Made by a program: the position numbers and the translations under genes. DNA of 53,779 nucleotides, from positions 1 to 53,779 of the IMG/VR virus record IMGVR_UViG_3300012933_000343. One strand, 5' to 3'. Positions 2,881-53,779 of this stretch are shown piece after piece. This DNA is from a virus. Under the pieces are notes generated by a model. That model was given only the letters and a program-made list of their open reading frames with translations, was not told the origin of the DNA and searched no databases. Every line of letters begins with the position of its first letter. Position 1 is the first letter of the stretch.

Positions 2881-3071
2881 TGGTCGCCGACCGGATGCTG
2901 CTGTCCGTGATCTCGCACACGCGATATGAGCTGCCGCGCGACATTGCCAGCCGCGTCGGCCTGCGCCGCGTCAACGCCTCCCTTGGCCGCTTGGTGCGCT
3001 GCGGATTGCTTGAGCGTGTGCCAGGGCCGACCTGCTTTTTGTACCGTTCAAAACAAGCGAGGATTGCGTGA
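2880..3071 (+). CDS. Small winged-helix-like DNA-binding protein (63 aa)
   Basis: Track ORF; LPRDIASRVGLRRVNASLGRLVRCGLLERV resembles a wHTH recognition helix plus wing; start overlaps the upstream stop (TAATG). Confidence 0.45.
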   Translation: MVADRMLLSVISHTRYELPRDIASRVGLRRVNASLGRLVRCGLLERVPGPTCFLYRSKQARIA

Positions 3072-3936: not shown

Positions 3937-4088
3937 ACTACCACGGCGCAATCACCCAAGCACTGGTCGACGAGCTTTTGGCCGTCGTCCACAAATACGA
4001 CCAGACCATGCTGCTACCCACCGCGCTTGGTTGCCTTGATTTGGTCAAGGCACAGCTGATTCAGGATCACCAGGAGGACGAGGAGTGA
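3933..4088 (+). CDS. Small hypothetical protein (51 aa, below the track cutoff)
   Basis: Hand translation: MNYHGAITQALVDELLAVVHKYDQTMLLPTALGCLDLVKAQLIQDHQEDEE. ATGA overlap with the upstream stop and GTGA overlap with the helicase start. It fills the gap exactly. Confidence 0.45.
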   Translation: MNYHGAITQALVDELLAVVHKYDQTMLLPTALGCLDLVKAQLIQDHQEDEE

Positions 4089-5500
4089 TCACCCCCCGCC
4101 CCCGACAAGCAAAAGCCATCGAGGACCTGCGCACCGCTTACCGCCAGGGCTTGAAGGCTCCGGTCCTGATTGCCCCCACCGGGTTTGGCAAGAGCGCAAC
4201 CGCGATCTGCATGATTCAAAGCGCGCTCGACAAAGGCAAGCGCGTCTGGTTCATCGCCCACCTCAAGGAAATCCTGAACGACACCAGCGGACGGCTGACC
4301 GAGGCGGGCATCCCGCACGGTTGGATCGCCTCTGGCCGCGACGGCAATCACCGCCTGCCCGTGCAGGTGGCCATGGTGCAAACGCTGGTGCGCCGCCTGG
4401 ACCGGTACCAACCGCCGGACCTGATCATTGTGGACGAGGCGCACCTGGCTGTGGCCAACACTTACCAGCAGATTTTTGAGTGGGCTGGCGCTGGGCCCAA
4501 GCACACACGCTCGGGTGGCTCGCACTTGCTGCACCTCACAGCCACACCCACACGGCTCGACGGCCGGGGCATGGGAGAGGTCGCCGACATTCTGGTGCCA
4601 ACCTGCAGCACGCAAGACCTGATCGACGAGGGGCTGCTTGCGCCCATTCGCTACTACGCGCCCAGCGAGCCGGACCTGTCCGGTGTGCACACCGTGGCCG
4701 GCGACTTCAACCAAGGCGAGCTGGCCGCTGCGATGGACAAGCCCGTCATCACCGGCAGCGCTGTTCAGCACTACCGCAAGTTGGCCGACGGTCGCCCGGC
4801 TGTGGCGTTTTGCGTGACCGTGGAGCACGCCACCAACGTGGCCGAGCAATTCAAGCAGGCCGGCTACCGTGCGGTGGCCATCAGCGGCGAGTCCGACACC
4901 GTTGCGCGCGATGCAGCGCTACAGGGCTTGCGAGACGGCAGTCTGGACGTGGTCTGCAACTGCGCCCTGTGGGTTGCCGGCGTCGATGCGCCAACCATCG
5001 GGTGCATCATTTTGCTCACGCCCACGCAGTCCGTGGTCAAGCACCTGCAGTCAATCGGCCGGGGCCTGCGCACACACCCGGGCAAGACCGAGTGCATCGT
5101 GCTCGACCACGCGGGCAACGTCAAGCGCCACGGGCTGCCCACCGAGCCACGCGAGTGGACGCTGGATGCGGTGGAGAAAAAGAAGAACGCCAAGAAGTCC
5201 GAGGTTCCGGTGAAAACCTGCCCCGTGTGCTTTGCCACCGTTGTTAGTGTGGTCACCGACTGCCAGTGTGGTCACCACTTCGAGGCCGTGGGCCGAAAGA
5301 TCAACGAGGTCGATGGTGATCTGAAAGAGATCACGGCCGCAGCCAAGGCTCAGGCAGTTCAAGACCGCAAACGCGAGCAGGGAAGGTCGCAAACCGAGGC
5401 CGACCTGATTCGCATCGGCTATTCCCGAGGCATGAAACGTCCAGAGCTTTGGGCGCGCCACGTGCTCCGCGCCCGAGCCGCCAAGGAGGCACAGAAATGA
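4085..5500 (+). CDS. Superfamily-2 DEAD/DEAH-box DNA helicase (471 aa) with a C-terminal zinc ribbon
   Basis: Walker A APTGFGKS, DEAH box (IIVDEAHL), later SF2 motifs (TATP, HAGN), CPVC...C.CGH ribbon; aggagg SD before the GTG start. Confidence 0.85.
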   Translation: MITPRPRQAKAIEDLRTAYRQGLKAPVLIAPTGFGKSATAICMIQSALDKGKRVWFIAHLKEILNDTSGRLTEAGIPHGWIASGRDGNHRLPVQVAMVQTLVRRLDRYQPPDLIIVDEAHLAVANTYQQIFEWAGAGPKHTRSGGSHLLHLTATPTRLDGRGMGEVADILVPTCSTQDLIDEGLLAPIRYYAPSEPDLSGVHTVAGDFNQGELAAAMDKPVITGSAVQHYRKLADGRPAVAFCVTVEHATNVAEQFKQAGYRAVAISGESDTVARDAALQGLRDGSLDVVCNCALWVAGVDAPTIGCIILLTPTQSVVKHLQSIGRGLRTHPGKTECIVLDHAGNVKRHGLPTEPREWTLDAVEKKKNAKKSEVPVKTCPVCFATVVSVVTDCQCGHHFEAVGRKINEVDGDLKEITAAAKAQAVQDRKREQGRSQTEADLIRIGYSRGMKRPELWARHVLRARAAKEAQK

Positions 5501-6126
5501 AAGTATTGATTGCTTGTGAATATTCAGCTCGTGTGCGCGACGCATTCAGACGCAAAGGGCATGACGCTTGGTCTTGCGATCTTCGGGAATGCGAGGGTGA
5601 CCCAGCGTTTCACATTCAAGGCGATGCGCTTGACCAGCTTCAGCCCGGAAGATGGGATCTGCTGATCGGCCACCCTTATTGCACATACAACACTCTTGCT
5701 GGCATCCGCTGGATGTACCACCCAGAGGACACGCATCTTCCAGCCGAGCAGCGCCGACGCCACCCCAGTTATCCAAATCGCATGGAGGATTTTCTCGAAG
5801 GCGTGCGGTTTTTCAACGCACTGAAGAACGCGCCCGTTCCGCTTATTGCGCTTGAAAACTCTCAGCCTCACGGATTGGCGATGCAGCACATTGGGCGCTA
5901 CGATCAAATTGTCCAGCCATGGATGTTTGGAGACCCTTACACCAAGGCAGCTGCGCTGTGGCTTAAGGGGTTGCCCAAGCTGGTCGCAACAAACCAAAAA
6001 AGCGACTACACAAAGATCATTGCAGCTTGTCACCTCATGCCACCCGGGCCGGAACGTGAAAAAGAGCGAAGTCGAACTCATCTTGGGATTGCTGAGGCCA
6101 TGGCAGAGCAGTGGGGTGGGTTATGA
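5497..6126 (+). CDS. Short DNA (cytosine-5) methyltransferase-like protein (209 aa)
   Basis: Track ORF trimmed to MKVLIACEYSARVRDAF... (ATGA overlap). The pattern LIACEYS (motif I-like), GHPYCTY (motif IV-like, Cys retained) and IALENS (ENV-like) matches a short phage C5-MTase-like family as I remember it. Confidence 0.5.
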   Translation: MKVLIACEYSARVRDAFRRKGHDAWSCDLRECEGDPAFHIQGDALDQLQPGRWDLLIGHPYCTYNTLAGIRWMYHPEDTHLPAEQRRRHPSYPNRMEDFLEGVRFFNALKNAPVPLIALENSQPHGLAMQHIGRYDQIVQPWMFGDPYTKAAALWLKGLPKLVATNQKSDYTKIIAACHLMPPGPEREKERSRTHLGIAEAMAEQWGGL

Positions 6127-6401
6127 CCTGCCCCGCATGCGCCCACCCCCGCGTCACACTGATCGACGGTACCGAGACCTGCACCTGGTCCGAGGCCTGG
6201 CGTTCTGAGACCGAAGCTCGCCACGTGCTGGCCATGCCTGGCAAGTATGAACGGCGCGAATACCTGCACGGCCGTGAGGAGGCGGGCAAGATCGTCAAGC
6301 GCGGCGTGTTTCAGGTCAGGGGCGAGGCTGCATGCCTGCAGCTTGAGGCCCAGGTGCGCAAGGTCTGGGAGCATGGCCGGAAACAACCGGGGGAAAAATG
6401 A
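6123..6401 (+). CDS. Hypothetical protein (92 aa)
   Basis: Track ORF 6111..6401 trimmed to MTCPACAHP... (ATGA overlap); N-terminal CPAC...C. Confidence 0.55.
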   Translation: MTCPACAHPRVTLIDGTETCTWSEAWRSETEARHVLAMPGKYERREYLHGREEAGKIVKRGVFQVRGEAACLQLEAQVRKVWEHGRKQPGEK

Positions 6402-6733
6402 ACCCGAAAATTCCACCCCCACTAAGTGAGGCCGATTTAATGCGGCAAATCATGGTGGCGCTCTCGGCCGACGGGCACTTTGTAACCAGGGCCAACGTGG
6501 GGTTGTTTTTCACCGCCGACGGCAGGCCCATCAAAACAGGTCTGCCCAAGGGGTTTTCGGATTTGTTTGGCCACCGACAGTGGGACTGCCGGGCTTTTTA
6601 CCTTGAGGTGAAAACCGCCAAGGGCCGTGCGTCTCCGGAGCAGCTGGCCTTCATCGCCGCCATGCAAAAGCGCGGCGCGCTGGCGGCAATCGTTCGGTCG
6701 GTGGAGGATGCCAGGCGGGCGCTTGAAGGTTGA
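6398..6733 (+). CDS. VRR-NUC domain nuclease (111 aa)
   Basis: GFSDLFG ... YLEVKTAKGRASPEQLAFI matches the D...(D/E)xK VRR-NUC core; ATGA overlap with the upstream ORF. Confidence 0.8.
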   Translation: MNPKIPPPLSEADLMRQIMVALSADGHFVTRANVGLFFTADGRPIKTGLPKGFSDLFGHRQWDCRAFYLEVKTAKGRASPEQLAFIAAMQKRGALAAIVRSVEDARRALEG

Positions 6734-6953
6734 TGGTGGCCCCGCTATACCTGGGCTCGGCAGCATTGATCGACCCTTGGCGGCGCTATCCCGGGTTCAT
6801 CCGCTTCTCTGGTATCTGCCTTCACGTTGTTGGGTGCCAAGAACCCTCAGCATTGCCCTCACCATCACGGCTGCGGACTGTTGGGCGTTTCCGGCGTTTC
6901 AGCCACTTTATCCTTTCAGAGCTGTGTACGAAACAGCCAGTCCGCATGCGTGA

Positions 6954-7039
6954 TGGTGGATGCCCAGGGACTCGAACCCCGCCGCCTTTTGGGCCACAGA
7001 TTTACAGTCTGCTGCGGTCGCCAGCGCCGCCCGGCATCC
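6954..7039 (-). tRNA. tRNA-Tyr: tRNA-Tyr (anticodon GTA), class II with long variable arm, CCA encoded
   Basis: Hand-folded reverse complement: acceptor GGATGCC/GGCATCC, D stem GCGG/CCGC, anticodon stem GCAGA/TCTGT with loop CTGTAAA, 14-nt variable arm, T arm CGGGG-TTCGAGT-CCCTG, discriminator A, CCA. The anticodon arm is nearly identical to E. coli tRNA-Tyr. Confidence 0.85.
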
Positions 7040-7156
7040 AGATTGACACCCCACCGGCCTGTTTTCGCCGAGTTACTTGAACTCCAAATCGGTGAGGTGT
7101 CAGGCTTAATCGTACCACAACCGTTGGGTTTTTCCGCACATTTATTTGACCCGCTG

Positions 7157-7187
7157 TTGCTTTTTTCCGCACCGCACCCTTTATACT
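7157..7187 (+). promoter_or_regulatory. Possible sigma70-like promoter upstream of the primase-helicase gene
   Basis: TTGCTT (7157-7162) - 19 nt - TATACT (7182-7187), with two TTTTTCCGCAC direct repeats (7129-7139, 7162-7172) nearby. The spacer is longer than optimal. Confidence 0.25.
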
Positions 7188-7284
7188 TTCGGTGGGGCTC
7201 GATCCGGTTAGCTACCGGGTGACACATGGCCTGACCCTGGCGAGGGCTGCCCCACCTTTTATTCGCCATCAACAAAAGCCAGGC

Positions 7285-9873
7285 ATGACGGACACAAAAA
7301 CAACAGGGCAGAGGGACCCCATTTCCCTTGAGACAGCGGAGCGCATGCTCTCGTTTGTTCGCGGTGTTGATGACCGCGAGACCTGGGTGAAGATGGCATT
7401 CATCCTCAAAGAAGAATTCGGCGAGCCCGCCTTTGACGCGTGGGACGCCTGGAGCCAGCAGGGCTCAAACTACAAACCAATCGACGCCCGCGACGTCTGG
7501 AAATCGTGCAAGCCCGGTGGCAGCTCCAAACGCGCCACCATCGGCACGCTGATCGCCCTAGCCAAAGAGGGCGGCTATAAATCCACCGCCCAAGACCGCA
7601 AGCCGGTCGACCACGAGGAGCGCCAGCGCCGGATCGCAGAGCGCGAGGCCCGCATGGCTGCCGAGGAGGCGCAGGCCAAAATTGATCGCGACGCCGCCGC
7701 CACCCGCGCGGCCGAGATGTGGGCCCGGGCCACGGTGGTCACCAGCCACCCTTATGCGCAGCGCAAACTGATCGAGCCCGATGGCGCTCGCATGCTGGGC
7801 GACGAGCTGCTTATTCCGCTGCGCCACGGGCCCGGCGCACTGGTCGGCCTCCAACGCATCAAGTCCGACGGCACCAAGTTGTTTCTCAAGGGCACGCCCT
7901 CGGGCGGTGCTTACACGGTGCTGGGCAAGCCCAACAAGCAGGGCACCATCGTGATCGCCGAGGGCTGGGCCACTGCCTGCTCCATCCGGCAGGCCACCGA
8001 GCACTGCGTGGTGGTCGCCTTCAACAGCGGCAACCTCCTGCCGGTCGCCCGCAAGATCCGCGCGGCCATGCCCGAGGCCCGCATGATCATTGCGGCCGAC
8101 GACGACTTCCAGACCAAAGGCAACCCCGGCATCACCGACGCCCGCAAAACGGCGATCGATGTCAACGCCCTGCTGGCCATCCCGGTTTGGTCCTCCGAGC
8201 GCGGGTCCGGTACCGACTTCAACGATCTGCACCTGGCCGATGGCTTGATCGCGGTCGAGGACTGCATCATGAGGGCCGACCCACCGGTTTCGCCCGATCC
8301 ACCACCGCAGCCGCCCGAGCCAACACCGGACCCAACGCCGGACCCAACGGACGACACCCCACCTTGGGACGACCACTCCGGCGACGGGCCACCGGACGAC
8401 ATTCCGCCCGACGATTACAGCGACCCGTCCCCACCGGACTCGGACGACGAGCGGATGATCTTCTCATCCTCGCCCATGAAAACCGCCAGCCTGTTCCACG
8501 ACACGCTGCCCGAGAAGGGCCGCATCCTGCACTGGCGCGGCGAGTTCTACAGCTGGGACGCCACGCGGTATGTCACCCGGGACCGGGTCTACATCGACCA
8601 GCGCCTCTACCACTTCATGGCCAAGTGTGTGACGCTCAAGGTCCACCCCAAGACCGGCGCGTCCGAGACGGTGGCCTTCAACCCGAAGTCCTCCACGGTC
8701 AACGACGTGGCCCACGCCCTGCGCGCGGTCTGCTACGCCGACCTGCCCGAGCCGCAGGTTTGGATTGACGACAAGCCTGGCGACGTTGCGGCCCATGAGA
8801 TCGTGGCCTTCAAAAACGGCTTCCTGCACCACCCAAGTCGGGAGCTGCTGCCCTCCACCGATCGCCTGTTTTGCACCTCGGCGCTGGACTTCAACTTCAC
8901 GCCCGAGGCCCCGCCGCCCACCGAATGGCTCAAATTCCTGCACAGCCTCTGGCCCGACGACCCCGAGTCGATCACCACGCTGGCCGAGATGTTTGGCTAC
9001 CTGCTGACCGACGACACCAGCCAACAAAAGATGTTCATGCTGATCGGCCCACCGCGCTGCGGCAAGGGCACCATCCTGCGCATCTTGGAAGCACTGGTCG
9101 GATACGCCAACCGGGTCAGCCCAAGCCTGGCGTCCCTGGGCACCCAGTTCGGCCTGCAGCCCCTGATTGGCAAGCGCCTGGCCATGATCTCCGACGCCCG
9201 CCTCTCCGGCCGCGCCGATCAGCAGCCCATCGTGGAAAACCTGCTGCGCATCTCCGGCGAGGACACCATCACGATTGACCGCAAGAACATGACCGCTTGG
9301 TCCGGCAAGATGGCCATCCGCTTTGTGCTCGCCTCCAACGAGCTGCCCGCCTTTTCGGACGCCTCGGCAGCGCTGGCCAACCGCTTCTTGCCCTTCAAGT
9401 TCAACACCAGCTTCCTGGGCAAAGAGGACCATGGCCTCACCGCCCGCCTGCTCAAAGAGCTGCCCGGCATCGTGATCTGGGCCCTCGACGGGCTTGGCCG
9501 TTTGAACCAGCGCGGCTACTTCCAACGCCCCACATCAGCCGACGAGCTGGCCGCCGACTTGGTCGATCAGACCAGCCCGATCCGGTCCTTTGTGCAAGAG
9601 ATGTGCATAGTTGGAGAGATCTACCAAGCCGACCGCGACGAGCTTTTCAAGGCTTGGAAGACCTGGTGCGAGGCTCAGGGCCGCGACCACGCGGGCACCA
9701 AAGTGTCGTTTGGCCGCCAGCTTTCAGCCGCCTTCCCTGGCATCAAGCGCAGTCAGCCTCGCGGAAATGGCACAGGATCATCCGGCGCCAACGAGCCTTC
9801 TGGCACAAGATTGAACCTTTACACGGGCATTCGGATGCGCCATGACTGGGAGGCAGACCATGAGCCTTTCTGA
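7285..9873 (+). CDS. Bifunctional DNA primase / SF3 replicative helicase (Toprim + P4/D5-type), 862 aa
   Basis: Track ORF 7192..9873 trimmed to MTDTKTTG... The N-terminal WVKMAFILKEEFG...FDAWDAWS resembles a primase C-terminal (PriCT-like) motif. Toprim signature IVIAEGWATACSI ... IIAADDD. Pro/Asp-rich linker. Walker A GPPRCGKGT and Walker B AMISDAR of P4-family helicases. Confidence 0.85.
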   Translation: MTDTKTTGQRDPISLETAERMLSFVRGVDDRETWVKMAFILKEEFGEPAFDAWDAWSQQGSNYKPIDARDVWKSCKPGGSSKRATIGTLIALAKEGGYKSTAQDRKPVDHEERQRRIAEREARMAAEEAQAKIDRDAAATRAAEMWARATVVTSHPYAQRKLIEPDGARMLGDELLIPLRHGPGALVGLQRIKSDGTKLFLKGTPSGGAYTVLGKPNKQGTIVIAEGWATACSIRQATEHCVVVAFNSGNLLPVARKIRAAMPEARMIIAADDDFQTKGNPGITDARKTAIDVNALLAIPVWSSERGSGTDFNDLHLADGLIAVEDCIMRADPPVSPDPPPQPPEPTPDPTPDPTDDTPPWDDHSGDGPPDDIPPDDYSDPSPPDSDDERMIFSSSPMKTASLFHDTLPEKGRILHWRGEFYSWDATRYVTRDRVYIDQRLYHFMAKCVTLKVHPKTGASETVAFNPKSSTVNDVAHALRAVCYADLPEPQVWIDDKPGDVAAHEIVAFKNGFLHHPSRELLPSTDRLFCTSALDFNFTPEAPPPTEWLKFLHSLWPDDPESITTLAEMFGYLLTDDTSQQKMFMLIGPPRCGKGTILRILEALVGYANRVSPSLASLGTQFGLQPLIGKRLAMISDARLSGRADQQPIVENLLRISGEDTITIDRKNMTAWSGKMAIRFVLASNELPAFSDASAALANRFLPFKFNTSFLGKEDHGLTARLLKELPGIVIWALDGLGRLNQRGYFQRPTSADELAADLVDQTSPIRSFVQEMCIVGEIYQADRDELFKAWKTWCEAQGRDHAGTKVSFGRQLSAAFPGIKRSQPRGNGTGSSGANEPSGTRLNLYTGIRMRHDWEADHEPF

Positions 9874-10100
9874 TTTTTGCCATTTGGCACAACTTAAAGG
9901 TGTGCCAGCACAACCTGGCACGACTTTTTTTAACCCCAAAAAACCTTTGCAACCCTTTGAATTCATTGGTTTTTTTGACTTTGGCACAACCTTGCACAAG
10001 ATAAAACGTATACCACTACATGTGCATGCACACACACGCACGCAAGAAACATATAGACGGGGTGAGGTTTTCTCCTGTTCCACCCGTGCCACCTGTGCCA
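9768..10100. repeat. Cluster of eight TGGCAC(A)/(T)GTGCCA motifs plus an A/T-rich tract; candidate replication origin or iteron/operator array
   Basis: TGGCAC at 9768, 9801, 9885, 9916 and 9982; GTGCCA at 9902, 10086 and 10095. An 11-bp TTTGGCACAAC repeat occurs at 9883-9893 and 9980-9990. A perfect inverted repeat TGGCACA-N9-TGTGCCA lies at 9885-9907. A6 and T7 tracts lie at 9936-9976. Confidence 0.6.
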
Positions 10101-10124
10101 AAGATTTTTTTATACAATAAAAGA

Positions 10125-10331
10125 ATGAAAACCAAAAATGAATCACTCCAACGAGGTCGTCCTTCAAAACACCCGTTTAGGGAACTTGATGTTGGTCAGT
10201 CCTTTCCCGTTCCTTTGAACGCTCAGGAATCCGTCAGGCGCCTTGCTTGGCGTCGAGGATTGGAGCTCAGTCGATCCTTCAGCGTTCGCAAACAACCCGA
10301 TGGCACGTTTCTGTGCACGCGCGTTGCATAA
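10125..10331 (+). CDS. Hypothetical basic protein (68 aa)
   Basis: Track ORF 10020..10331 trimmed to MKTKNESLQRGRPSK... The upstream part of the track ORF covers the AT-rich repeat region. Confidence 0.5.
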   Translation: MKTKNESLQRGRPSKHPFRELDVGQSFPVPLNAQESVRRLAWRRGLELSRSFSVRKQPDGTFLCTRVA

Positions 10332-10356
10332 TCCCCACCACCACCCAAGGCCCCCC

Positions 10357-11715
10357 ATGACCAAATCCACCACGGAAATCGCAGCCGAAAAACTTACCGG
10401 AAACCCTGCCGACAAAATCGAGCAGTGGAGCATCGACAAACTTATCCCCTACGCGCGCAACAGCCGCACGCACTCAGACGAGCAGGTCGGACAAATCGCC
10501 GCCTCGATCAAAGAGTGGGGCTGGACCACTCCAATCCTGGTCGATGAGAACGGCGGCATCATTGCCGGACACGGCCGCACGATGGCCGCACAGCGCCTCA
10601 AAATGACCACGGTCCCTGTCATGGTCGCCACAGGCTGGTCCGAGGCCAAAAAGATGGCCTACATCATTGCCGACAACCGCCTTGCCTTAAACGCCGGGTG
10701 GGACAACGAGATGCTCGCCACCGAGTTCAAAGACCTGCTCGACCTCGGCTTCGACGTCAGCCTCACAGGCTTTTCCGAGGAGGAGATCGACGCCTTGATG
10801 CCACTGGAGCTGGAAGAAGGCCTCACGGACCCCGACGACGCGCCCGAGGCCCCGGTCAACCCAGTCACGGTCCAAGGCGACGTTTGGGTGCTCGGCAAAC
10901 ACCGGCTCTTGTGCGGCGACAGCACCAGCATGGACGACTTGGCCAAGCTGTGCGAAAACCAAGCCGTCGACATGTGGCTGACCGACCCACCCTACAACGT
11001 GGCCTATGAGGGCGGCACCAAAGAGAAGCTGACCATCAAAAACGACGAGATGGGCGACGATCAGTTCCGCCAGTTTCTGCGCGACGCTTACACCGCTGCC
11101 GACTCGGTCATGAAATCCGGCGCGGTTTTCTACATTTGGCACGCTGACTCCGAGGGTTACAACTTCCGGGGCGCTGCCAAGGACGCCGGCTGGACTGTGC
11201 GCCAGTGCTTGATCTGGAAGAAGTCCTCCCTCGTCATGGGCCGCCAGGATTACCACTGGAAGCATGAGCCCTGCCTCTACGGCTGGAAAGACGGCGCGGG
11301 CCACCTCTGGGCTGCCGACCGCAAGCAGACCACCATCCTCGAGTTCGACAAACCCACCCGCAACGGCGAGCACCCGACCATGAAGCCCGTGGCCCTGTTC
11401 GAGTACCAGCTGCTCAACAACACCAAGGGCGGCGACATCGTTTTGGACTCGTTTGGCGGCTCCGGCACCACCCTGATCGCCGCCGAGAAAAACGGCCGAG
11501 TTGCACGGTTGATGGAGTTGGAACCAAAATACTGCGACGTGATCGTGACCCGGTGGCAGCAATTCACCGGCAAGCACGCCCACCTGGAGGCCGACGGTCG
11601 GTCCTTCACCGAGGTGATGGGCGAGCGCAGCCCCAACAGCCTGATCGGCAGCGAGATCGGCAAGGCTGACAAGCCCAAGGTTGAGAAGGCCAAACCTGCA
11701 AAATCGGCCGATTGA
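10357..11715 (+). CDS. ParB-like nuclease domain fused to a beta-class N6A/N4C DNA methyltransferase (452 aa)
   Basis: Track ORF trimmed to MTKSTTEI... N-terminal ParB/Srx pattern (IDKLIPYARNSRTH ... IIAGHGR), then DPPY (LTDPPYNV) preceding the SAM motif VLDSFGGSGTT. Confidence 0.85.
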   Translation: MTKSTTEIAAEKLTGNPADKIEQWSIDKLIPYARNSRTHSDEQVGQIAASIKEWGWTTPILVDENGGIIAGHGRTMAAQRLKMTTVPVMVATGWSEAKKMAYIIADNRLALNAGWDNEMLATEFKDLLDLGFDVSLTGFSEEEIDALMPLELEEGLTDPDDAPEAPVNPVTVQGDVWVLGKHRLLCGDSTSMDDLAKLCENQAVDMWLTDPPYNVAYEGGTKEKLTIKNDEMGDDQFRQFLRDAYTAADSVMKSGAVFYIWHADSEGYNFRGAAKDAGWTVRQCLIWKKSSLVMGRQDYHWKHEPCLYGWKDGAGHLWAADRKQTTILEFDKPTRNGEHPTMKPVALFEYQLLNNTKGGDIVLDSFGGSGTTLIAAEKNGRVARLMELEPKYCDVIVTRWQQFTGKHAHLEADGRSFTEVMGERSPNSLIGSEIGKADKPKVEKAKPAKSAD

Positions 11716-11756
11716 TGACAAAAACAGACCGAATCACTGTCAAAAAGGAGAGATTC

Positions 11757-12224
11757 ATGACAAAAACGACTGAAAAACCGGTTGTAAAAAAGACCGGCAA
11801 AAATGGCGGTGCTCGCGATGGGGCTGGTCGCAACCCATTTGAGCCCACAGAAACCGAGCGCAAGCAAGTGGAGGCTCTGTCGGGCTACGGCCTTCCCCTT
11901 GAGCAGATCGCTGTGCTGGTGCGCAAAAGCATCAGTGTGGAAACCCTGACGACTCACTTCAAAGAGGAGCTGATCAGCGGCAAGGCCAAGGCCAACAGCC
12001 AGGTCGGCCGCACTCTTTACCAGAAGGCGACGGGCGGCGACACCACAGCCATGATCTGGTGGACCAAAACCCAGATGAAGTGGTCCGAGACGCAGAAGGT
12101 CGAGCACACCGGCAAAGACGGCGGCGCGATCGCCCTGTCCAGCGTGGACTTGAAAGGCTTGAACGACAACGAGCTGGCGCAGATGCAAGCGTTGTTGCAA
12201 AAAGCCAACGGGGGTGAGGAATGA
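11757..12224 (+). CDS. terS: Terminase small subunit (155 aa)
   Basis: Track ORF trimmed to MTKTTEK... (aaaggag SD). GAGRNPFEPTETERKQVEALSGYGLPLEQIAVLV...TL..HF..EL..GKAKAN...TLYQKA..GDTTAMIWWTKTQMKW is a typical HTH-type TerS pattern. Located two small ORFs upstream of TerL. Confidence 0.75.
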   Translation: MTKTTEKPVVKKTGKNGGARDGAGRNPFEPTETERKQVEALSGYGLPLEQIAVLVRKSISVETLTTHFKEELISGKAKANSQVGRTLYQKATGGDTTAMIWWTKTQMKWSETQKVEHTGKDGGAIALSSVDLKGLNDNELAQMQALLQKANGGEE

Positions 12225-12801: not shown

Positions 12802-12995
12802 CTGCCTCAGCGGCTTACCCGGGCGATGAAGACGTGTTTTGCCATTTGGTCCCGATCGGGGACTTTAAGGAGCATGAGCTATCGCGCGCTTGCTGGTGCC
12901 ACCCACGCCCCGACGAGCAAGTGCCAGAGGTGATGGTCCACAACGCCATGGACCAGCGCGAGCGGCTTGAGCGCGGGGAGATTTACATCCAATGA
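12798..12995 (+). CDS. Hypothetical protein (65 aa)
   Basis: Track ORF 12690..12995 trimmed to MTASAAYPG... (ATGA overlaps on both sides); C..H...C.CH cluster. Confidence 0.5.
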   Translation: MTASAAYPGDEDVFCHLVPIGDFKEHELSRACWCHPRPDEQVPEVMVHNAMDQRERLERGEIYIQ

Positions 12996-14569
12996 GCGCG
13001 CCCGTTTCGCCAGCCGTCATGCTGGACATGATCTCCAAGGAGCAAGCTCGCCGCAGGGCGGGCGCTTCGCTCTACGAGTTCGTCAAGCAGTCTTGGCACG
13101 TCATGGAGCCCGGCGTCCCGTTCGTCCCGAGCTGGCACATCGAGGAGATCTGCGAGCACCTGGAGGCTGTAAGCTGCGGCGACATTCAGCGGCTGCTGAT
13201 CAACATCCCGCCGCGCCACTCCAAGTCCACCATCGTCTCGGTGGCCTGGTGCGCCTGGGAGTGGATCGCCAATCCAGAGCAGAAGTTCTTGGCCGCGTCG
13301 TACTCGGGCACGCTGTCCATCCGGGACAACTTGAAGGCCCGTCGCCTGATCCAGTCGCCTTGGTACCAGGACCGCTTTGGGCATATGTTCAACCTTGCGG
13401 GCGACCAAAACGCCAAGCAGCGCTTCGAGAACGACTGCACCGGCTACCGAATCGCCACCTCGGTGGGCGGTACCGCAACGGGTGAGGGCGGCTCGCGTTT
13501 GATCCTTGACGACCCGCACGGCGCGCAGGACGCGCAGTCCGAGACCATGCGAGAGACCGCGCTCGAGTGGTTCGACATGGTCTGGTCGACCCGGCTGAAC
13601 AACCCCAAGACCGACGCCATGGTCACCGTCATGCAGCGCCTGCATGAGAAGGACATCAGCGGTCACATCCTGAACGACATCGGCGGCTGGGAGCACATCT
13701 GCATCCCTGCCGAGTGGGACGGCAAGAAGCGCAGCACGGTGCTCGGCTCCTACGACCCGCGCACGGTCAAGGGCGAGCTGATCTGTCCGGACCGATTCGG
13801 TGAGGCCGAGATCACCAAGCTCAAGCAACTGCTGGGCACCTACGGCTCGTCTGGCCAGCTGCAGCAGGACCCGTCTCCCACCGAGGGCGGCATCTTGGCC
13901 ACCAAGCACTTTCAGCTTTGGCAGTCGGTTACCCGCCTGCCGCAGTTCGAGTACATCCTGCAAAGCTACGACACCGCGTTCACCGAGCGCACCACGGGCG
14001 ACCCGACCGCCTGCACCGTCTGGGGCGTGTTCTCGCACCGAGGCCTGCGCAACGCGATGCTGCTGGACGCCTGGGACGAGCACCTGTCTTACCCGGACCT
14101 GCGCGCCCGCGTCATCCGGGACTGGACGTCGCAGTACGGCGCGGACGCCAGCCCCAAGGCGGGGATGCCGACCAAGGGCAGGCGGCCCGACCGTTTGCTG
14201 GTCGAGGCGAAGGCCTCGGGGCAGTCGCTGCTGCAGGACCTGCGGTTGGCCAAAGTCCCGGCCGTTGGCTACAATCCCGGGCAAGCGGACAAGGTTTCGC
14301 GGGCGCACCAGGCAGCGCCAACGCTGGAGCTGGGGTTGTTGTGGATTCCCGAGTCCACCAAAAACCCCGGGCAGCCAGTCAGTTGGGCGGCCACCTTTCT
14401 GAAGCAGATCGCCAAGTTCCCTGTCGCAGAGCACGATGACTACGTGGACACCTTCACCCAGGCAGTCATTTTTCTGAAAAACGATGGCTGGTTCGAGCTG
14501 CCGCAAGCAAGCGACGCGGACGAGCCAAGACCGTACAAGAAGGAAAGGTCGAATCCTTATGCCGCCTGA
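12992..14569 (+). CDS. terL: Terminase large subunit (525 aa)
   Basis: ATPase centre LLINIPPRHSKST (Walker A-like) and LILDDPH (Walker B), followed by a nuclease half; size and position after TerS fit. Confidence 0.9.
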   Translation: MSAPVSPAVMLDMISKEQARRRAGASLYEFVKQSWHVMEPGVPFVPSWHIEEICEHLEAVSCGDIQRLLINIPPRHSKSTIVSVAWCAWEWIANPEQKFLAASYSGTLSIRDNLKARRLIQSPWYQDRFGHMFNLAGDQNAKQRFENDCTGYRIATSVGGTATGEGGSRLILDDPHGAQDAQSETMRETALEWFDMVWSTRLNNPKTDAMVTVMQRLHEKDISGHILNDIGGWEHICIPAEWDGKKRSTVLGSYDPRTVKGELICPDRFGEAEITKLKQLLGTYGSSGQLQQDPSPTEGGILATKHFQLWQSVTRLPQFEYILQSYDTAFTERTTGDPTACTVWGVFSHRGLRNAMLLDAWDEHLSYPDLRARVIRDWTSQYGADASPKAGMPTKGRRPDRLLVEAKASGQSLLQDLRLAKVPAVGYNPGQADKVSRAHQAAPTLELGLLWIPESTKNPGQPVSWAATFLKQIAKFPVAEHDDYVDTFTQAVIFLKNDGWFELPQASDADEPRPYKKERSNPYAA

Positions 14570-23862: not shown

Positions 23863-23887
23863 GGGGGCTTCGGCCCCCTTTTCTTTT
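23863..23887 (+). terminator. Rho-independent terminator after the major capsid gene
   Basis: GGGGGC-ttcg-GCCCCC stem-loop followed by TTTTCTTTT. Confidence 0.85.
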
Positions 23888-39298: not shown

Positions 39299-41227
39299 AT
39301 GCCCAGCTTGTTCCAGGGTGACCCCCAAAAAGCGACGTCTTACGTCACCAGCACCACCGAGACACCGAAGTGGCTGCAAGATGCGATTTACAACCAAATC
39401 TACCAGTCCACCAACGTGGCCAACACGCCGTTTACGCCTTACGGCGGGACGCTGGTGGCCGGTGCAACCCCGCAGCAAAAGCAGGCCTACGACGCGGTAA
39501 GCGCCAACTTTGGGGCATTTCAGCCGGCCCTGGCAAAAGCGCAAGAGGGCGTGCAAGCACTGTCAACTGCGCCTGGCGGTATGGCGGCGGCATCGCCTTA
39601 CATGACGCAGGCCGCAGGCATGAGCCCACTGCAGGCCGCGCAGCCTTTGCTGTCGCAGGCCACAAGCACAAGCGGCGTTAACGCGGCGCAGCCTTACCTT
39701 GCGCAACAAGCTGGACAGCTTGGTGCGATTGATTACGGCGCAGCCGGTTCGGCTTTGTCGCCCTACGTGCAACAAGCCATCCAAAGCAGCGGTGTTGGCG
39801 CGGCATCGCCATATTTGAACCAGCAGGCGGCGGCTCTTGGTGGCGTTGACACTGGTGCCGGTGCTCGCACGCTCTCTCCGTATGTGCAAGAAGCGATGCA
39901 GACAAGCGGCGTCGGCGCGGCGTCTCCGTATATTTCGCAAGCGGCTTCGCAGCTTTCAGGCGTTGACACCGGTGCCGGTGCTCGCGCGCTCTCGCCGTAT
40001 GTGCAGGCCAGCCTTGAGGGCTCTGGCCTGACCGCTGCGGCCCCGTACATGCAGCAGGCTGCACAAACATCTGCACAGGATATTGGGCAGTTCTTCAACC
40101 CCTACACGGAGTCGGTGACCAACCAGATCGCCAAGCTCGGTGCGCGCAACCTTTCAGAAAACTTGCTGCCTGCGGTGTCGGACTCTTTCATTCGCGCCGG
40201 CCAATTCGGCGGCACGCGCATGGGCGAGTTTGGCAGCCGTGCATTGCGCGACACGCAAGAGTCCGTCATTGGCCAGCAGTCGCAGGCTTTGCAAGCTGGC
40301 TACGGCCAAGCGTTGTCCGCCGCTCAGCAAGAATCAGCTCGCCAAGCGCAACTGGCATCTACCGCTGGCAGCCTGGGCACAGCTCAGCAGCAAGCCATCA
40401 TGGCCGGAGGCCAAGCTCTTAGCTCCGCTCAACAGCAGGCCGCCCAACAAGAGATGGCGCGCGCAGGACAGACAGCACAACTTGGCCAGCAGTTGGGTGG
40501 CCTTACTCAAGCCCAACAGCAGGCCATCCTGTCCGGCGGCCAGGCGCTCAGCGCTGCTCAGCAACAGGCCGCTCAACAGGAAATGGCGCGCGCACAGGGC
40601 TTGGGCCAAGTGGGCTCTCAGCTTGGCCAACTCACGCAGGCACAGCAGCAGGCAATCCTGTCTGGTGGCCAGGCCTTGTCGTCTGCCGAGCAGCAGGAAA
40701 TTTCCCAGCGGTTGTCCGGTGCGGGTCAGGTTGGCCAAATCGGCGCTCAGCTTGGCGGTTTGACGCAAGCTCAGCAACAAGCCCTCATGAGCGCGGCTCA
40801 ACAAACGGGCTCGCTTACCGGACAGCAGCAGCAGTTGCTGGCGACTCTGGGTTCCCAATCCGGTCAGCTTACAGGTGCAGACCTGCAGCGCCAGCAGTCG
40901 GCGTTGCAGCAGATGGCGGCCATGGCCCAGCAGGGTCAGCAGATGCGAACAACCGATGTGGCTGCACTGGAGGCCGCAGGGTCTGCCCAGCAAACACAGG
41001 CGCAGCGCGAGGCCGACGCAAAGTACCAGCAGTACATGCTCGAGCAGCAGTACCCCAAGTCGCAGCTCGACTGGTTGTCCACTCAGGTTCGCGGCATGGC
41101 CCCCAACGTGCAGTCGTCCACCACGCAGGGCACAACAAGCACCGGGGCATCTTACTCGGCGTCTCCGTTGCAGCAATTGGCAACCGGACTGTCGGCATCT
41201 GCCGGTCTGAGCAAGCTGCTCGGCTAA
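39299..41227 (+). CDS. Gln/Ala-rich repeat protein, internal virion / ejection-type (642 aa)
   Basis: Two families of in-frame tandem repeats (39-aa units with SPY(V/L/I)QQA motifs; 43-aa units GGQALS.AQQQAAQQEMARA...LGGLTQAQQQAILS). Confidence 0.55.
   Translation: MPSLFQGDPQKATSYVTSTTETPKWLQDAIYNQIYQSTNVANTPFTPYGGTLVAGATPQQKQAYDAVSANFGAFQPALAKAQEGVQALSTAPGGMAAASPYMTQAAGMSPLQAAQPLLSQATSTSGVNAAQPYLAQQAGQLGAIDYGAAGSALSPYVQQAIQSSGVGAASPYLNQQAAALGGVDTGAGARTLSPYVQEAMQTSGVGAASPYISQAASQLSGVDTGAGARALSPYVQASLEGSGLTAAAPYMQQAAQTSAQDIGQFFNPYTESVTNQIAKLGARNLSENLLPAVSDSFIRAGQFGGTRMGEFGSRALRDTQESVIGQQSQALQAGYGQALSAAQQESARQAQLASTAGSLGTAQQQAIMAGGQALSSAQQQAAQQEMARAGQTAQLGQQLGGLTQAQQQAILSGGQALSAAQQQAAQQEMARAQGLGQVGSQLGQLTQAQQQAILSGGQALSSAEQQEISQRLSGAGQVGQIGAQLGGLTQAQQQALMSAAQQTGSLTGQQQQLLATLGSQSGQLTGADLQRQQSALQQMAAMAQQGQQMRTTDVAALEAAGSAQQTQAQREADAKYQQYMLEQQYPKSQLDWLSTQVRGMAPNVQSSTTQGTTSTGASYSASPLQQLATGLSASAGLSKLLG
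39671..40060 (+). repeat. 117-bp (39-aa) in-frame tandem repeats, about 3.3 copies
   Basis: Units start at 39671, 39788, 39905 and 40022 (partial). The 50-mers starting at 39842 and 39959 differ at only a few positions. Confidence 0.85.
40277..40792 (+). repeat. 129-bp (43-aa) in-frame tandem repeats, 4 copies
   Basis: Units start at 40277, 40406, 40535 and 40664. Conserved cores ggccaggc.ct.agc.c.gc.cagcaacaggc and ct.ac.ca.gc.cagca.ca.gc. Confidence 0.85.
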
Positions 41228-46330: not shown

Positions 46331-46635
46331 TTGTTTGGCTCCAATAATTTCTTGACATCTTCGTACACGTCGTTCCGCGCGTGGTTGTCGGCCTCTTGCA
46401 CGGTCCAGCCTGCGTAGCGCATCTCGTTTTCGCAACGTTGCAGCAGCTCATGCATCTCGCGCAAGCAGTCTGCAGCCTTGCCATGCAAAGGCACCTGCAT
46501 GGTTTTTTCCAGCATGGTGGCAAGGCGCAAAGGCTTTGGGAGTTGACTCGCGCGCATCAGCTCTGCGGTGTCTTCTTCACTGGCATACAGGTCGAAATAA
46601 TCGTCAGCTTTTTGAAATGTGGGCGAAATACTCAT
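46327..46635 (-). CDS. Hypothetical protein (102 aa)
   Basis: Track ORF; aaggagaaaag SD; ATGA overlaps. Confidence 0.6.
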   Translation of the reverse strand: MSISPTFQKADDYFDLYASEEDTAELMRASQLPKPLRLATMLEKTMQVPLHGKAADCLREMHELLQRCENEMRYAGWTVQEADNHARNDVYEDVKKLLEPNK

Positions 46636-46838
46636 GTCTTTTCTCCTTTCGCGTCCTCAAACATCCAGTCCTCGACGTCTTGCAGTCGGTATCGGACGGG
46701 GCTGCGGTGCTGGCCACCAAGTTTCAGAAACTTTGGCCCGTGGTTTTTAAGCCGCCAGTTTTCCAGTGTTCCGGTGCTGACTTGCAGCAGATCTGCCACT
46801 TGCTGCGGCGTGAGCAGCTGGTTTTCAAACTTCTCCAT
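46632..46838 (-). CDS. Excisionase/AlpA-type (MerR-like) helix-turn-helix DNA-binding protein (68 aa)
   Basis: Track ORF trimmed to MEKFENQLLTPQQVADLLQVSTGTLENWR... (ggagag SD). LTPQQVADLLQVS..TL..WR is the HTH_17-type pattern. Confidence 0.65.
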   Translation of the reverse strand: MEKFENQLLTPQQVADLLQVSTGTLENWRLKNHGPKFLKLGGQHRSPVRYRLQDVEDWMFEDAKGEKT

Positions 46839-46879
46839 ATTGCTCTCCAGGTGGGCCGCTCGAAAGCGGCCCGGGGTTA

Positions 46880-47077
46880 TCACTCGGCAGCGGGCGTGGT
46901 CTCTGCGGCAGGCGTTGCCACTGGGATGTTTTGCGCCTCAGCTTGCGCCTTGGCCTGGCTCTCCAGGTTGTTCAAGAGCACCCAAGCGTTTGTCTTGGTG
47001 GGCAGGTCGCCCAAAATGGCCTGCAGGAAGTTGAACTCGCTGACGGTCAGCTTAAGGTTGATGGTTTGTTCGTTCAT
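46880..47077 (-). CDS. Hypothetical protein (65 aa)
   Basis: Track ORF. Confidence 0.5.
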   Translation of the reverse strand: MNEQTINLKLTVSEFNFLQAILGDLPTKTNAWVLLNNLESQAKAQAEAQNIPVATPAAETTPAAE

Positions 47078-53457: not shown

Positions 53458-53779
53458 GGCTTGCCTTTCGTGGGTGCGGCGGCGAGCATGGCCCCGTAGC
53501 ACTCAATGGCTGCAACAATCAGGGCGCGGTCGTACCCACGGAGGCGAAGGTCTGCTACGCCCGCATCTAGCATTTCGGGTGTCGGCTTTACCGGAACCAG
53601 CCTCCACCCTTCGGGCACGGCTGGCTGTGCTGAGGGTGGGGTAGCGAGTTTGCAAAGAGGGTGATGATCGCCGGGTGCGCAAAGCGGCTTCCCGCAAGAC
53701 AACGGCATTCCCATGCTATCAATGGGCTCCTGCACAGGTGCTGCAAGGGCACGCTCATCAGCACGAACAAGGGCTTCAA
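53454..53779 (-). CDS. 3' part of the junction-spanning CDS (see 1..155)
   Basis: The track ORF 53454..53735 starts at a GTG, but the frame is open upstream to the window edge and continues in frame into 56..155 after circular closure. Contains PEGWRLVPVKPTPEMLDAG, a motif common in small phage proteins. Confidence 0.7.
   Translation of the reverse strand, partial: EALVRADERALAAPVQEPIDSMGMPLSCGKPLCAPGDHHPLCKLATPPSAQPAVPEGWRLVPVKPTPEMLDAGVADLRLRGYDRALIVAAIECYGAMLAAAPTKGKP
53725..53779. repeat. Right copy of the 55-bp exact terminal repeat (identical to 1..55)
   Basis: Verbatim identity with bases 1-55. Confidence 0.97.

Follow-up and report, generated by a model that had tools for sequence, protein, structure and literature searches.

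Does the dense array of short repeats at the end of a phage primase-helicase gene mark the place where replication of the phage genome begins? The question is raised by positions 9768-10100 of the IMG/VR virus record IMGVR_UViG_3300012933_000343, all 53,779 nucleotides of which were analyzed and are here called the window. Bases 1-55 recur at 53725-53779; the window is therefore a complete genome of about 53,724 bp whose assembly closes into a circle. We propose that the array is a phage replication origin of the type found in the pathogenicity islands of Staphylococcus aureus (SaPIs) and related to the ori of phage P4, a reading to which we assign a probability of about 0.75, and we propose the adjacent primase-helicase as its initiator. 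The locus would thereby provide a concrete origin candidate for a family of uncultured phages of ~54 kb.

The repeat cluster and its sites

The original prediction had reported eight exact copies of TGGCAC in this region. We found all of them, on the plus strand at 9768, 9801, 9885, 9916, and 9982 and on the minus strand at 9902, 10086, and 10095, together with two further features that it had described, the 11-mer TTTGGCACAAC, present at both 9883 and 9980, and, at 9885-9907, the inverted repeat TGGCACA-N9-TGTGCCA. The array also straddles the end of the primase-helicase gene, as had been stated, since the stop codon lies at 9871-9873. The background of about one TGGCAC per 2 kb was set too low: 57 copies were counted on the two strands of 53.8 kb (one per 0.94 kb), which equals the expectation from shuffled sequences, and the hexamer is therefore not rare in this genome. 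Eight copies within 333 bp are nevertheless far above the 0.35 expected (Poisson, P = 4e−9). Among all hexamers compared, the TGGCAC cluster is the most extreme for any word that is not of low complexity, and only the coding repeat CAGCAG clusters more strongly. When 300 genomes were simulated under a first-order Markov model, with low-complexity words excluded, a cluster of any hexamer that was equally or more extreme was present in one of them. Chance is thus excluded as an explanation of the TGGCAC cluster.

The repeat unit is longer than the hexamer. In the window it spans ~11 bp, TGGCACA(A/G)(G/C)(A/T)T, and in an alignment of relatives the family-wide core of the iteron is GCACA(A/G)GAT, of which TGGCAC is the form taken in most genomes. 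About 12 positionally conserved sites, named A to L, are distributed across 9768-10100, and in the window they comprise eight exact and four degenerate copies, the latter all at sites conserved in relatives. With the stop codon at 9871-9873 and the next open reading frame (ORF) beginning at 10125, three copies are within coding sequence and the others in a gap of 251 bp. Sites A to C fall within the last ~105 nt of the ORF, and the first intergenic copy begins 12 bp past the stop. The left-hand part of the array consists of direct copies A, C, D, F, G, H, and I and inverted copies B and E; the right-hand part consists of the three tandem inverted copies J, K, and L.

Within the gene, site A (9768..9778, plus strand, TGGCACAGGAT) occupies codons 859-863, site B (9780..9790, minus strand, reverse complement TGGCGCCGGAT) occupies codons 863-867, and site C (9801..9811, plus strand, TGGCACAAGAT) occupies codons 870-874, which read S-G-T-R-L. 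Site B, at alignment columns 59-71, is degenerate in the window and an exact inverted copy in most relatives, and a minus-strand copy is found at −85 in most loci. Site C is kept in all relatives, including those with 58-67% identity. Past the stop codon follow sites D (9885..9895, plus strand, TGGCACAACTT), E (9897..9907, minus strand, reverse complement TGGCACACCTT), F (9906..9916, plus strand, degenerate, CAGCACAACCT), and G (9916..9926, plus strand, TGGCACGACTT). Sites D and E are the two arms of a palindrome, and in many relatives another one, ATCCTGTGC-C-GCACAGGAT, is made up of E and F. Sites H (9982..9992, plus strand, TGGCACAACCT) and I (9992..10002, plus strand, degenerate, TTGCACAAGAT) are in tandem at a 10-bp spacing and are followed by the conserved GATAAAACG. 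Sites J (10072..10082, degenerate, reverse complement TGGAACAGGAG), K (10081..10091, reverse complement TGGCACGGGTG), and L (10090..10100, reverse complement TGGCACAGGTG) are all on the minus strand, in tandem at a 9-bp spacing, and face the left-hand copies. The motif GCACARGAT occurs four times in the genome, three times within the array and once elsewhere, and a second, crr-like cluster of the extended motif was not found in the genome.

Several other elements are embedded in the array. The A/T-rich center at 9925..9976, evident from the sequence and from the stability profile, is a candidate unwinding region; it contains the homopolymer runs T7 (9925-9931), A6 (9938-9943), and T7 (9970-9976), the last two of them where the original prediction had placed an easily melted stretch (9936-9976). 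A site of the integration host factor (IHF) type lies on the minus strand at 9950-9962, with one mismatch in the window, and 27 of 36 relatives have an exact WATCAANNNNTTR, its N positions variable, at the corresponding place. Between the facing sites H/I and J/K/L, positions 10017..10044 form a perfectly alternating purine/pyrimidine tract of 28 nt (TACATGTGCATGCACACACACGCACGCA). No other run of this kind in the genome is as long (the next has 13 nt, and shuffled sequences average 16 nt), and relatives with protein identities as low as 58% keep the tract. At the right edge of the array (10104) lies the genome's least stable 40-mer. In the window's class of iterons, sites E and G form a hairpin that is followed by T7 and resembles a terminator, 28 bp past the stop; in class-2 relatives the T-run is missing. 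By eye, the reverse complement of the iteron (TTATCCTGTGC) agrees with the DnaA box TTATCCACA at six of nine positions. The claim that the array occupies the largest AT-rich non-coding gap of the genome holds in part: the gap at 9874-10124 is non-coding and AT-rich, and this region is the second most AT-rich 300-bp segment of the genome (0.41 G+C versus 0.40 at 23879), but the spacer at 6734-7191 is longer. Rfam was searched for known RNA families: 9000-11000 gave no match at E values of up to 1, and at the gathering score the whole window gave none.

Two other groups of hexamers were seen in the genome. CAGCAG occurs 10 times in 333 bp at about 40643-40975, within the long plus-strand ORF 39299-41227; this strongest hexamer cluster of the genome is presumably a coding repeat. 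Four copies of TGGCAC are present within 243 bp at 12896-13138, in coding DNA around the start of the large-terminase gene. As these four are without the extended motif of the iterons, their grouping is probably due to chance.

Conservation and change of the array among relatives

Among GenBank phages no close relative was found (the best match is to the methylase, at 79% identity, and matches to the primase are below 40% identity). Related loci were found in uncultured phages of ~54 kb from freshwater and soil metagenomes: 45 in IMG/VR and one on a contig of a Polaromonas metagenome-assembled genome in GTDB, with primase-helicases 45-96% identical to that of the window. We counted repeats from −150 to +400 around the stop codon in the 39 loci that carry the 3′ end of the gene. 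In 33 of them there are 6 to 11 exact copies of TGGCAC in a single orientation plan, on a background of 0.2 to 1.3 per kb. Five of the remaining six hold the whole array as CCGCAC or CTGCAC, and the sixth, L044, has an array of TGGTCC.

A MAFFT alignment of 36 distinct sequences, whose primase-helicases are 58-96% identical, places the 12 sites in fixed positions: A(+), B(−), and C(+) in the end of the ORF and D(+), E(−), F(+), and G(+) past the stop, followed by an A-run, the conserved GCAACCCTTTGATTTCATTG, H(+) and I(+) 10 bp apart, GATAAAACGCCTAT, the alternating tract, J, K, and L (all −) 9-10 bp apart, and then GTTGCATAAT. The expectation that homologous phages would keep a repeat array in the same position is thus borne out, in the same place and with the same plan in all 36. 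The array stays beside the primase-helicase gene whatever gene comes next, and the iteron does not track the family of the small terminase (TerS).

The iterons change in concert. The 5′ dinucleotide is TG at 6 to 10 sites in most genomes. In L012, L013, and L046, GCAC is instead preceded by CC or TC (7 + 4, 5 + 2, and 6 + 2 sites, respectively), and in L002 and L042 it is preceded by TT or CT. Classes can also be told apart by the 3′ half of the iteron, which is AAC(T/C)T in the window's group and A(A/G)GAT in others. The sites within the ORF change as well: GGC ACA becomes CGC ACA, which replaces Gly with Arg at two positions. Sites A and C are written with rare codons that end in A (ACA, GGA, and TCA at site A and AGA at site C; ACA, GGA, TCA, and AGA make up 16%, 8%, 9%, and 1.3% of their families in ten long genes). 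Because the in-ORF sites change in concert with the others and because A and C use rare codons, these patterns point to selection on the DNA sequence itself at the in-ORF sites.

The end of the protein changes together with the array. Loci L013, L011, and L032 represent three iteron classes, and their primase-helicases are 91-99% identical over residues 1-850 and 68-77% identical over residues 851-893; for L013 and L011 the values are 97-98% and 77%, and identity of the tail follows iteron class. At the nucleotide level both flanks are 91-100% identical, and the sole dip, to 60-80%, extends from about −210 to +270 relative to the stop codon. The window and L024 show the reverse pattern: 81-93% identity over the body of the protein, with an identical tail and the same array. 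Given that identity of the tail and array is decoupled from that of the body and the flanks, the array and the last ~45 codons appear to behave as a swapped cassette. A search for genes that co-vary with iteron class, extending over ±10 kb, showed that none of 14 left-arm genes tracks it.

Would a repeat of different sequence be found at the same position in more distant homologues? In four distant lineages, with 29-56% identity, we found different repeats there, all directly past the stop codon, in agreement with the co-variation that the original prediction had called for. Locus L044 (45% identical to the window) has at 5431-5563 four copies of TGGACC/TGGTCC at 9-11 bp, 65 bp of A/T-rich DNA, and three inverted copies of GGACC(A). 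Locus L057 (56% identical to L044) has at 2905-3035 three copies of GTCCCTAGT, ~65 bp of A/T-rich DNA, and three inverted copies of GGGGACACT, a GTCCC repeat. In the Flavonifractor locus L048, which encodes a helicase of 431 aa only (29% identical to the window), three copies of GCGTTC face three of GAACGC across a G+C-rich spacer of 20 bp (5004-5066). Locus L049 (LR797314; 29% identical to the window, with the same domain order) has at 4084-4215 four to five copies of TTTGTGCTGTTGG, all direct, with the repeat listed as TTGTGCTGTTGG; a search for relatives of L049 returned L049 alone. The arrays are therefore convergent in three of the four lineages (L044, L057, and L048). Short convergent repeats directly past a gene for a D5-family helicase may be a useful predictor of origins and could be a general rule.

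The proposed initiator and the proposed origin

The primase-helicase ORF (7192..9873, plus strand, 893 codons; the start codon is uncertain, between 7192 and 7285) matches PriCT_2, Toprim_3, D5_N, and DUF5906/superfamily 3 (SF3) in Pfam and PHROG. The sole match of the whole protein in PDB at the sequence level is PriRep5 of SaPI5 (7OLA, E = 3.6e−10, residues 537-832). A profile of the last 150 residues, built from 13 homologues, matched four chains: PriRep5 (E = 2e−3), RFX1 (0.014), RFX5 (0.03), and the origin-binding domain of the P4 alpha protein (1KA8, 0.2), the likeness to the last being marginal at the sequence level. In an AlphaFold model of residues 740-893 (mean predicted local distance difference test score of 70.7, with 76-90 in the core), the C-terminal domain models as a winged helix of the RFX type. 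A Foldseek search with the model returned RFX5 first (4.8e−4, template modeling [TM] score of 0.72), then the RFX1-DNA complex (3.4e−3, TM score of 0.74) and the tail domain of the African swine fever virus primase-helicase. The model is shallow, based on nine close sequences, because a search for homologues of the domain gave eight close fragments only. D5-family proteins, P4 alpha included, bind origins via a C-terminal winged helix (PMC4889955), and the P4 origin-binding domain and RFX1 have the same fold (PMC10516667). In RFX1 the major groove is read by the wing and not by the helix (PMC4333399).

The predicted wing comprises strand b2 (residues 852-854), a disordered loop (859-871), and strand b3 (876-882). 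This wing hairpin corresponds to the variable tail (9745..9873, plus strand; the last ~43 residues, 851-893), which appears to be exchanged along with the array, and the codons of sites A to C fall in the hairpin's loop, where site A lies, and in the start of its second strand. The wing-loop insertion is missing in distant homologues. These coincidences allow a tentative and rather doubtful extension of the origin reading, in which the origin would be a self-contained specificity cassette: the reader and part of the DNA that it reads would be one and the same sequence, and a single recombination tract, from about −210 to +270, would switch specificity. Because iterons A to C lie in codons of the wing hairpin (residues 859-874), a change of flank from TGGCAC to CCGCAC would rewrite two wing residues (Gly to Arg), with QPR changing to QPM and LYTG to LFVG in addition. 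If this is true, the switch was perhaps driven by competition or incompatibility of co-infecting relatives. The locus is of wider interest because codons for the wing, the probable reader of the array, themselves contain part of that array, and because array and codons are apparently swapped together as a cassette; iteron classes on near-identical protein backbones would also offer a natural series for how an RFX-type wing reads DNA.

We suggest the following course of initiation. The C-terminal RFX-type winged helix would bind the iterons, with the wing hairpin reading their variable flanks; hexamers would assemble on either side while host IHF bends the center; the easily melted DNA would open, and the SF3 helicase would load itself. 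The Toprim domain would then prime synthesis, and a host polymerase would extend the primers. Between genomes, the array and the ~45 wing codons would be exchanged as one specificity cassette.

The closest known counterpart is the SaPI origin, in which 6 to 12 iterons lie immediately past rep with an AT-rich region near their center; at least two iterons per side, in opposite directions, are bound by the C-terminal winged helix of Rep, and two hexamers are probably loaded (PMC9371898). As far as can be judged from sequence, every testable feature of a SaPI/P4-type origin is found at the locus: an adjacent D5_N/DUF5906 SF3 helicase with a predicted C-terminal winged helix; 6 to 12 iterons at the end of its gene; an A/T-rich stretch (9925-9976) with left-hand copies mostly in plus orientation and J, K, and L in minus orientation, with the caveat that H and I (both plus) lie to the right of this stretch; and an iteron that co-varies with the initiator between relatives, the link to the protein being correlative. 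The likeness to SaPI origins thus extends to the homologous initiator (PriRep5, 7OLA) with its C-terminal winged helix, 8 to 12 short iterons at the 3′ end of the gene, an A/T-rich center, opposed iterons on its two sides, and a specificity that differs between relatives (PMC9371898). Unlike in SaPIs, the primase here is of the Toprim/DnaG type with PriCT_2, the iterons measure ~11 bp instead of 5-6 bp, three of them lie in wing codons of the ORF, an IHF-type site and the 28-nt alternating tract are present, and the carrier is not a satellite but a 53.7-kb tailed phage of a Gram-negative host. The view that the adjacent primase-helicase binds here, to an origin or iteron region, is supported by the comparative test, by the homology to PriRep5, and by the predicted RFX-type fold of the C terminus. 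On this view, the design of SaPI origins would reach tailed phages that infect Gram-negative bacteria, as well as at least four more lineages whose iterons differ.

The analogy to P4 drawn by the original prediction fits with respect to the origin-binding fold, although the SaPI origin and not P4 ori/crr is the closest model. For its replication P4 depends on two elements in cis, ori and crr, that are separated by about 4.5 kb and have the octamer TGTTCACC. Here there is a single array, and because a second crr-like cluster is missing the system does not appear to be of the two-site P4 kind. Iterons within the coding sequence of the initiator itself are also a feature of lambdoid phages, whose ori lies in gene O and in which iterons and binding domain co-vary between relatives. 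Lambda O differs in that it is not a helicase and binds via its N-terminal domain; its ori is in mid-gene, and host DnaB is recruited through P. The SF3 initiators of simian virus 40 (SV40) and papillomaviruses, large T antigen and E1, assemble on short repeats in inverted orientation, with easily melted DNA between them. Their origin-binding domain has a different, endonuclease-derived fold (PMC4889955), and their viruses are eukaryotic. P4 shares with the locus a Toprim primase, an SF3 helicase, and a C-terminal winged-helix origin-binding domain (PMC4889955), as well as short iterons in both orientations.

Several observations weigh against the origin reading or limit it. Binding, melting, and autonomous replication are all activities that we infer for the array. 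Cumulative GC skew, which the original prediction had proposed to examine, has no inflection at 9.9 kb; in this genome skew goes with the direction in which genes are transcribed and is therefore uninformative. The homologous primase genes of 9NA, R9Y2, 1/44, Wentworth, and 1.032.O have no significant repeat array past the gene (0 of 5), so the arrangement, as judged from these sequences, is common and not universal. Co-variation of tail and array is partly automatic, since sites A to C are inside the tail, and independent switches of iteron class are few. The genomes are mosaic, and it is therefore just within about ±2.5 kb that the array alone differs. The search for co-varying genes covered the left arm, with right-arm genes, including that of a helix-turn-helix protein at 46635-46883, outside its range. 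The site of melting is ambiguous, because the facing copies (H/I versus J/K/L) flank the alternating tract and not the A/T-rich stretch, which lies between G and H. A regulatory role for the array is also possible, because the array borders the packaging module and the conserved GTTGCATAAT follows it.

Such a role would be that of an operator array at the border of early and late genes, to which a phage regulator or the primase-helicase itself would bind, ending or repressing the replication operon and controlling a methylase/terminase promoter. In the window as in its relatives, the array always has the replication module on one side and the packaging module on the other; GTTGCATAAT is found past site L and before the next gene in most relatives; and the E/G hairpin with its T7 could terminate transcription soon after the primase-helicase stop. 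We nonetheless consider an operator improbable as the main function, because a scan for sigma-70-like promoters found none in 9500-10500, the T-run behind the hairpin is missing in class-2 relatives, and the distance between the array and GTTGCATAAT is not kept (15-25 bp mostly, 230-290 bp with inserted ORFs in between, examples being the window, L024, L003, L007, L008, and L028/29). Moreover, the motif is clustered at one locus only, iteron class is tracked by 0 of 14 left-arm genes, and the arrays of the distant homologues adjoin the helicase gene in quite different downstream contexts. Operator function could be the sole role of the array or be added to that of an origin, as with SV40 T antigen at its origin, and an added role is possible. 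The proximity to the packaging genes also brings to mind a pac or cosB-like site, with repeats bound by the small terminase and bent by IHF as at lambda cosB. The array is upstream of these genes (almost directly upstream of the small-terminase gene in L030, L036, and L044) and has an IHF-type site among its repeats. This reading is very unlikely, however: the same TGGCAC iterons occur with unrelated TerS families, phrog_309 in the window and the Sf6 type in L030 and L036, and with TerS proteins only 52% identical; in the window, terS lies 1.6 kb from the array, beyond an inserted ORF and the methylase gene; the ends of related contigs are scattered over many places and the window is circular, with no fixed end here; and in L049 the array stands beside a homologous helicase gene without a nearby terminase.

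In most relatives the gene that follows the array encodes a methyltransferase with a ParB domain, and the repeats could be its parS-like centromere sites. Loci L030, L036, and L040 keep the array with no such methylase gene within 3-4 kb, the methylase genes of L013 and L011 are 97-98% identical at the nucleotide level even though their iteron classes differ, and the methylase protein matches ParB_N and methylase families only, with no helix-turn-helix family among its matches; the odds of this explanation are accordingly very slim. TGGCAC also resembles the −24 element of sigma-54 promoters, and 9982-9996, which reads TGGCACAACCTTGCA, approaches TGGCAC-N5-TTGCA, with the upstream inverted repeats and the IHF-type site in the place of enhancer and bend. 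Sigma-54 promoters have a canonical spacing of GG-N10-GC. The spacing at 9982 is GG-N9-GC, one base short, in every relative, because the match consists of two iterons at a distance of 10 bp; the GG is absent from relatives in the CCGCAC and CTGCAC classes, and the −12 element is missing at seven of the eight copies. We therefore rejected one or more sigma-54 promoters, on the spacing and on the loss of GG in relatives, as next to impossible. A phage attachment site (attP) was not favored either: no integrase was found among the genes scanned, a set that did not extend to the structural ORFs at 14.6-44.6 kb, and it is with the helicase gene that the array moves.

Neighboring genes and variable regions

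Upstream of the primase-helicase gene are genes for an SNF2-type helicase (4085-5500) and a VRR-NUC nuclease (6398-6733). The non-coding gap of the array is followed by a 68-codon ORF (10125-10331, phrog_10287) and by genes for a ParB_N-N6/N4 methylase (10357-11715), the small terminase (11712-12224), and the large terminase (12992-14569). No polymerase gene was recognized among the genes scanned, and RecT- and RecE-like genes are found on the other arm.

The 68-codon ORF, between iteron L and GTTGCATAAT, is present in the window and L024 only; the other relatives have ~290 bp of other DNA or nothing in its place. The right edge of the array thus appears to be an insertion hot spot. GTTGCATAAT itself is located at 10323-10332 in the window and at homologous places in L002-L047, just before whichever gene follows the array, and distant relatives have it in the form GTTGCGAAAAT. 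It may be a −10-like or leader element.

Another variable place is the ORF 2098-2454, the first plus-strand ORF past the divergent region at ~1988-2098. It encodes 118 aa, belongs to no family, and is replaced in most relatives. At its counterpart (about −7700 in L100, L102, and L113) three otherwise similar genomes all differ, and the differences do not track iteron class. This place may be a variable region of the immunity type.

The host of these phages is probably Polaromonas or another member of the Comamonadaceae. In the variable spacer between the VRR-NUC and primase-helicase genes, ARAGORN calls a tRNA-Tyr (GTA) at 6954-7039 on the minus strand, opposite to its neighbors, and Rfam gives for the same positions a sub-threshold match to its tRNA-Sec model (32 bits versus a gathering score of 47).

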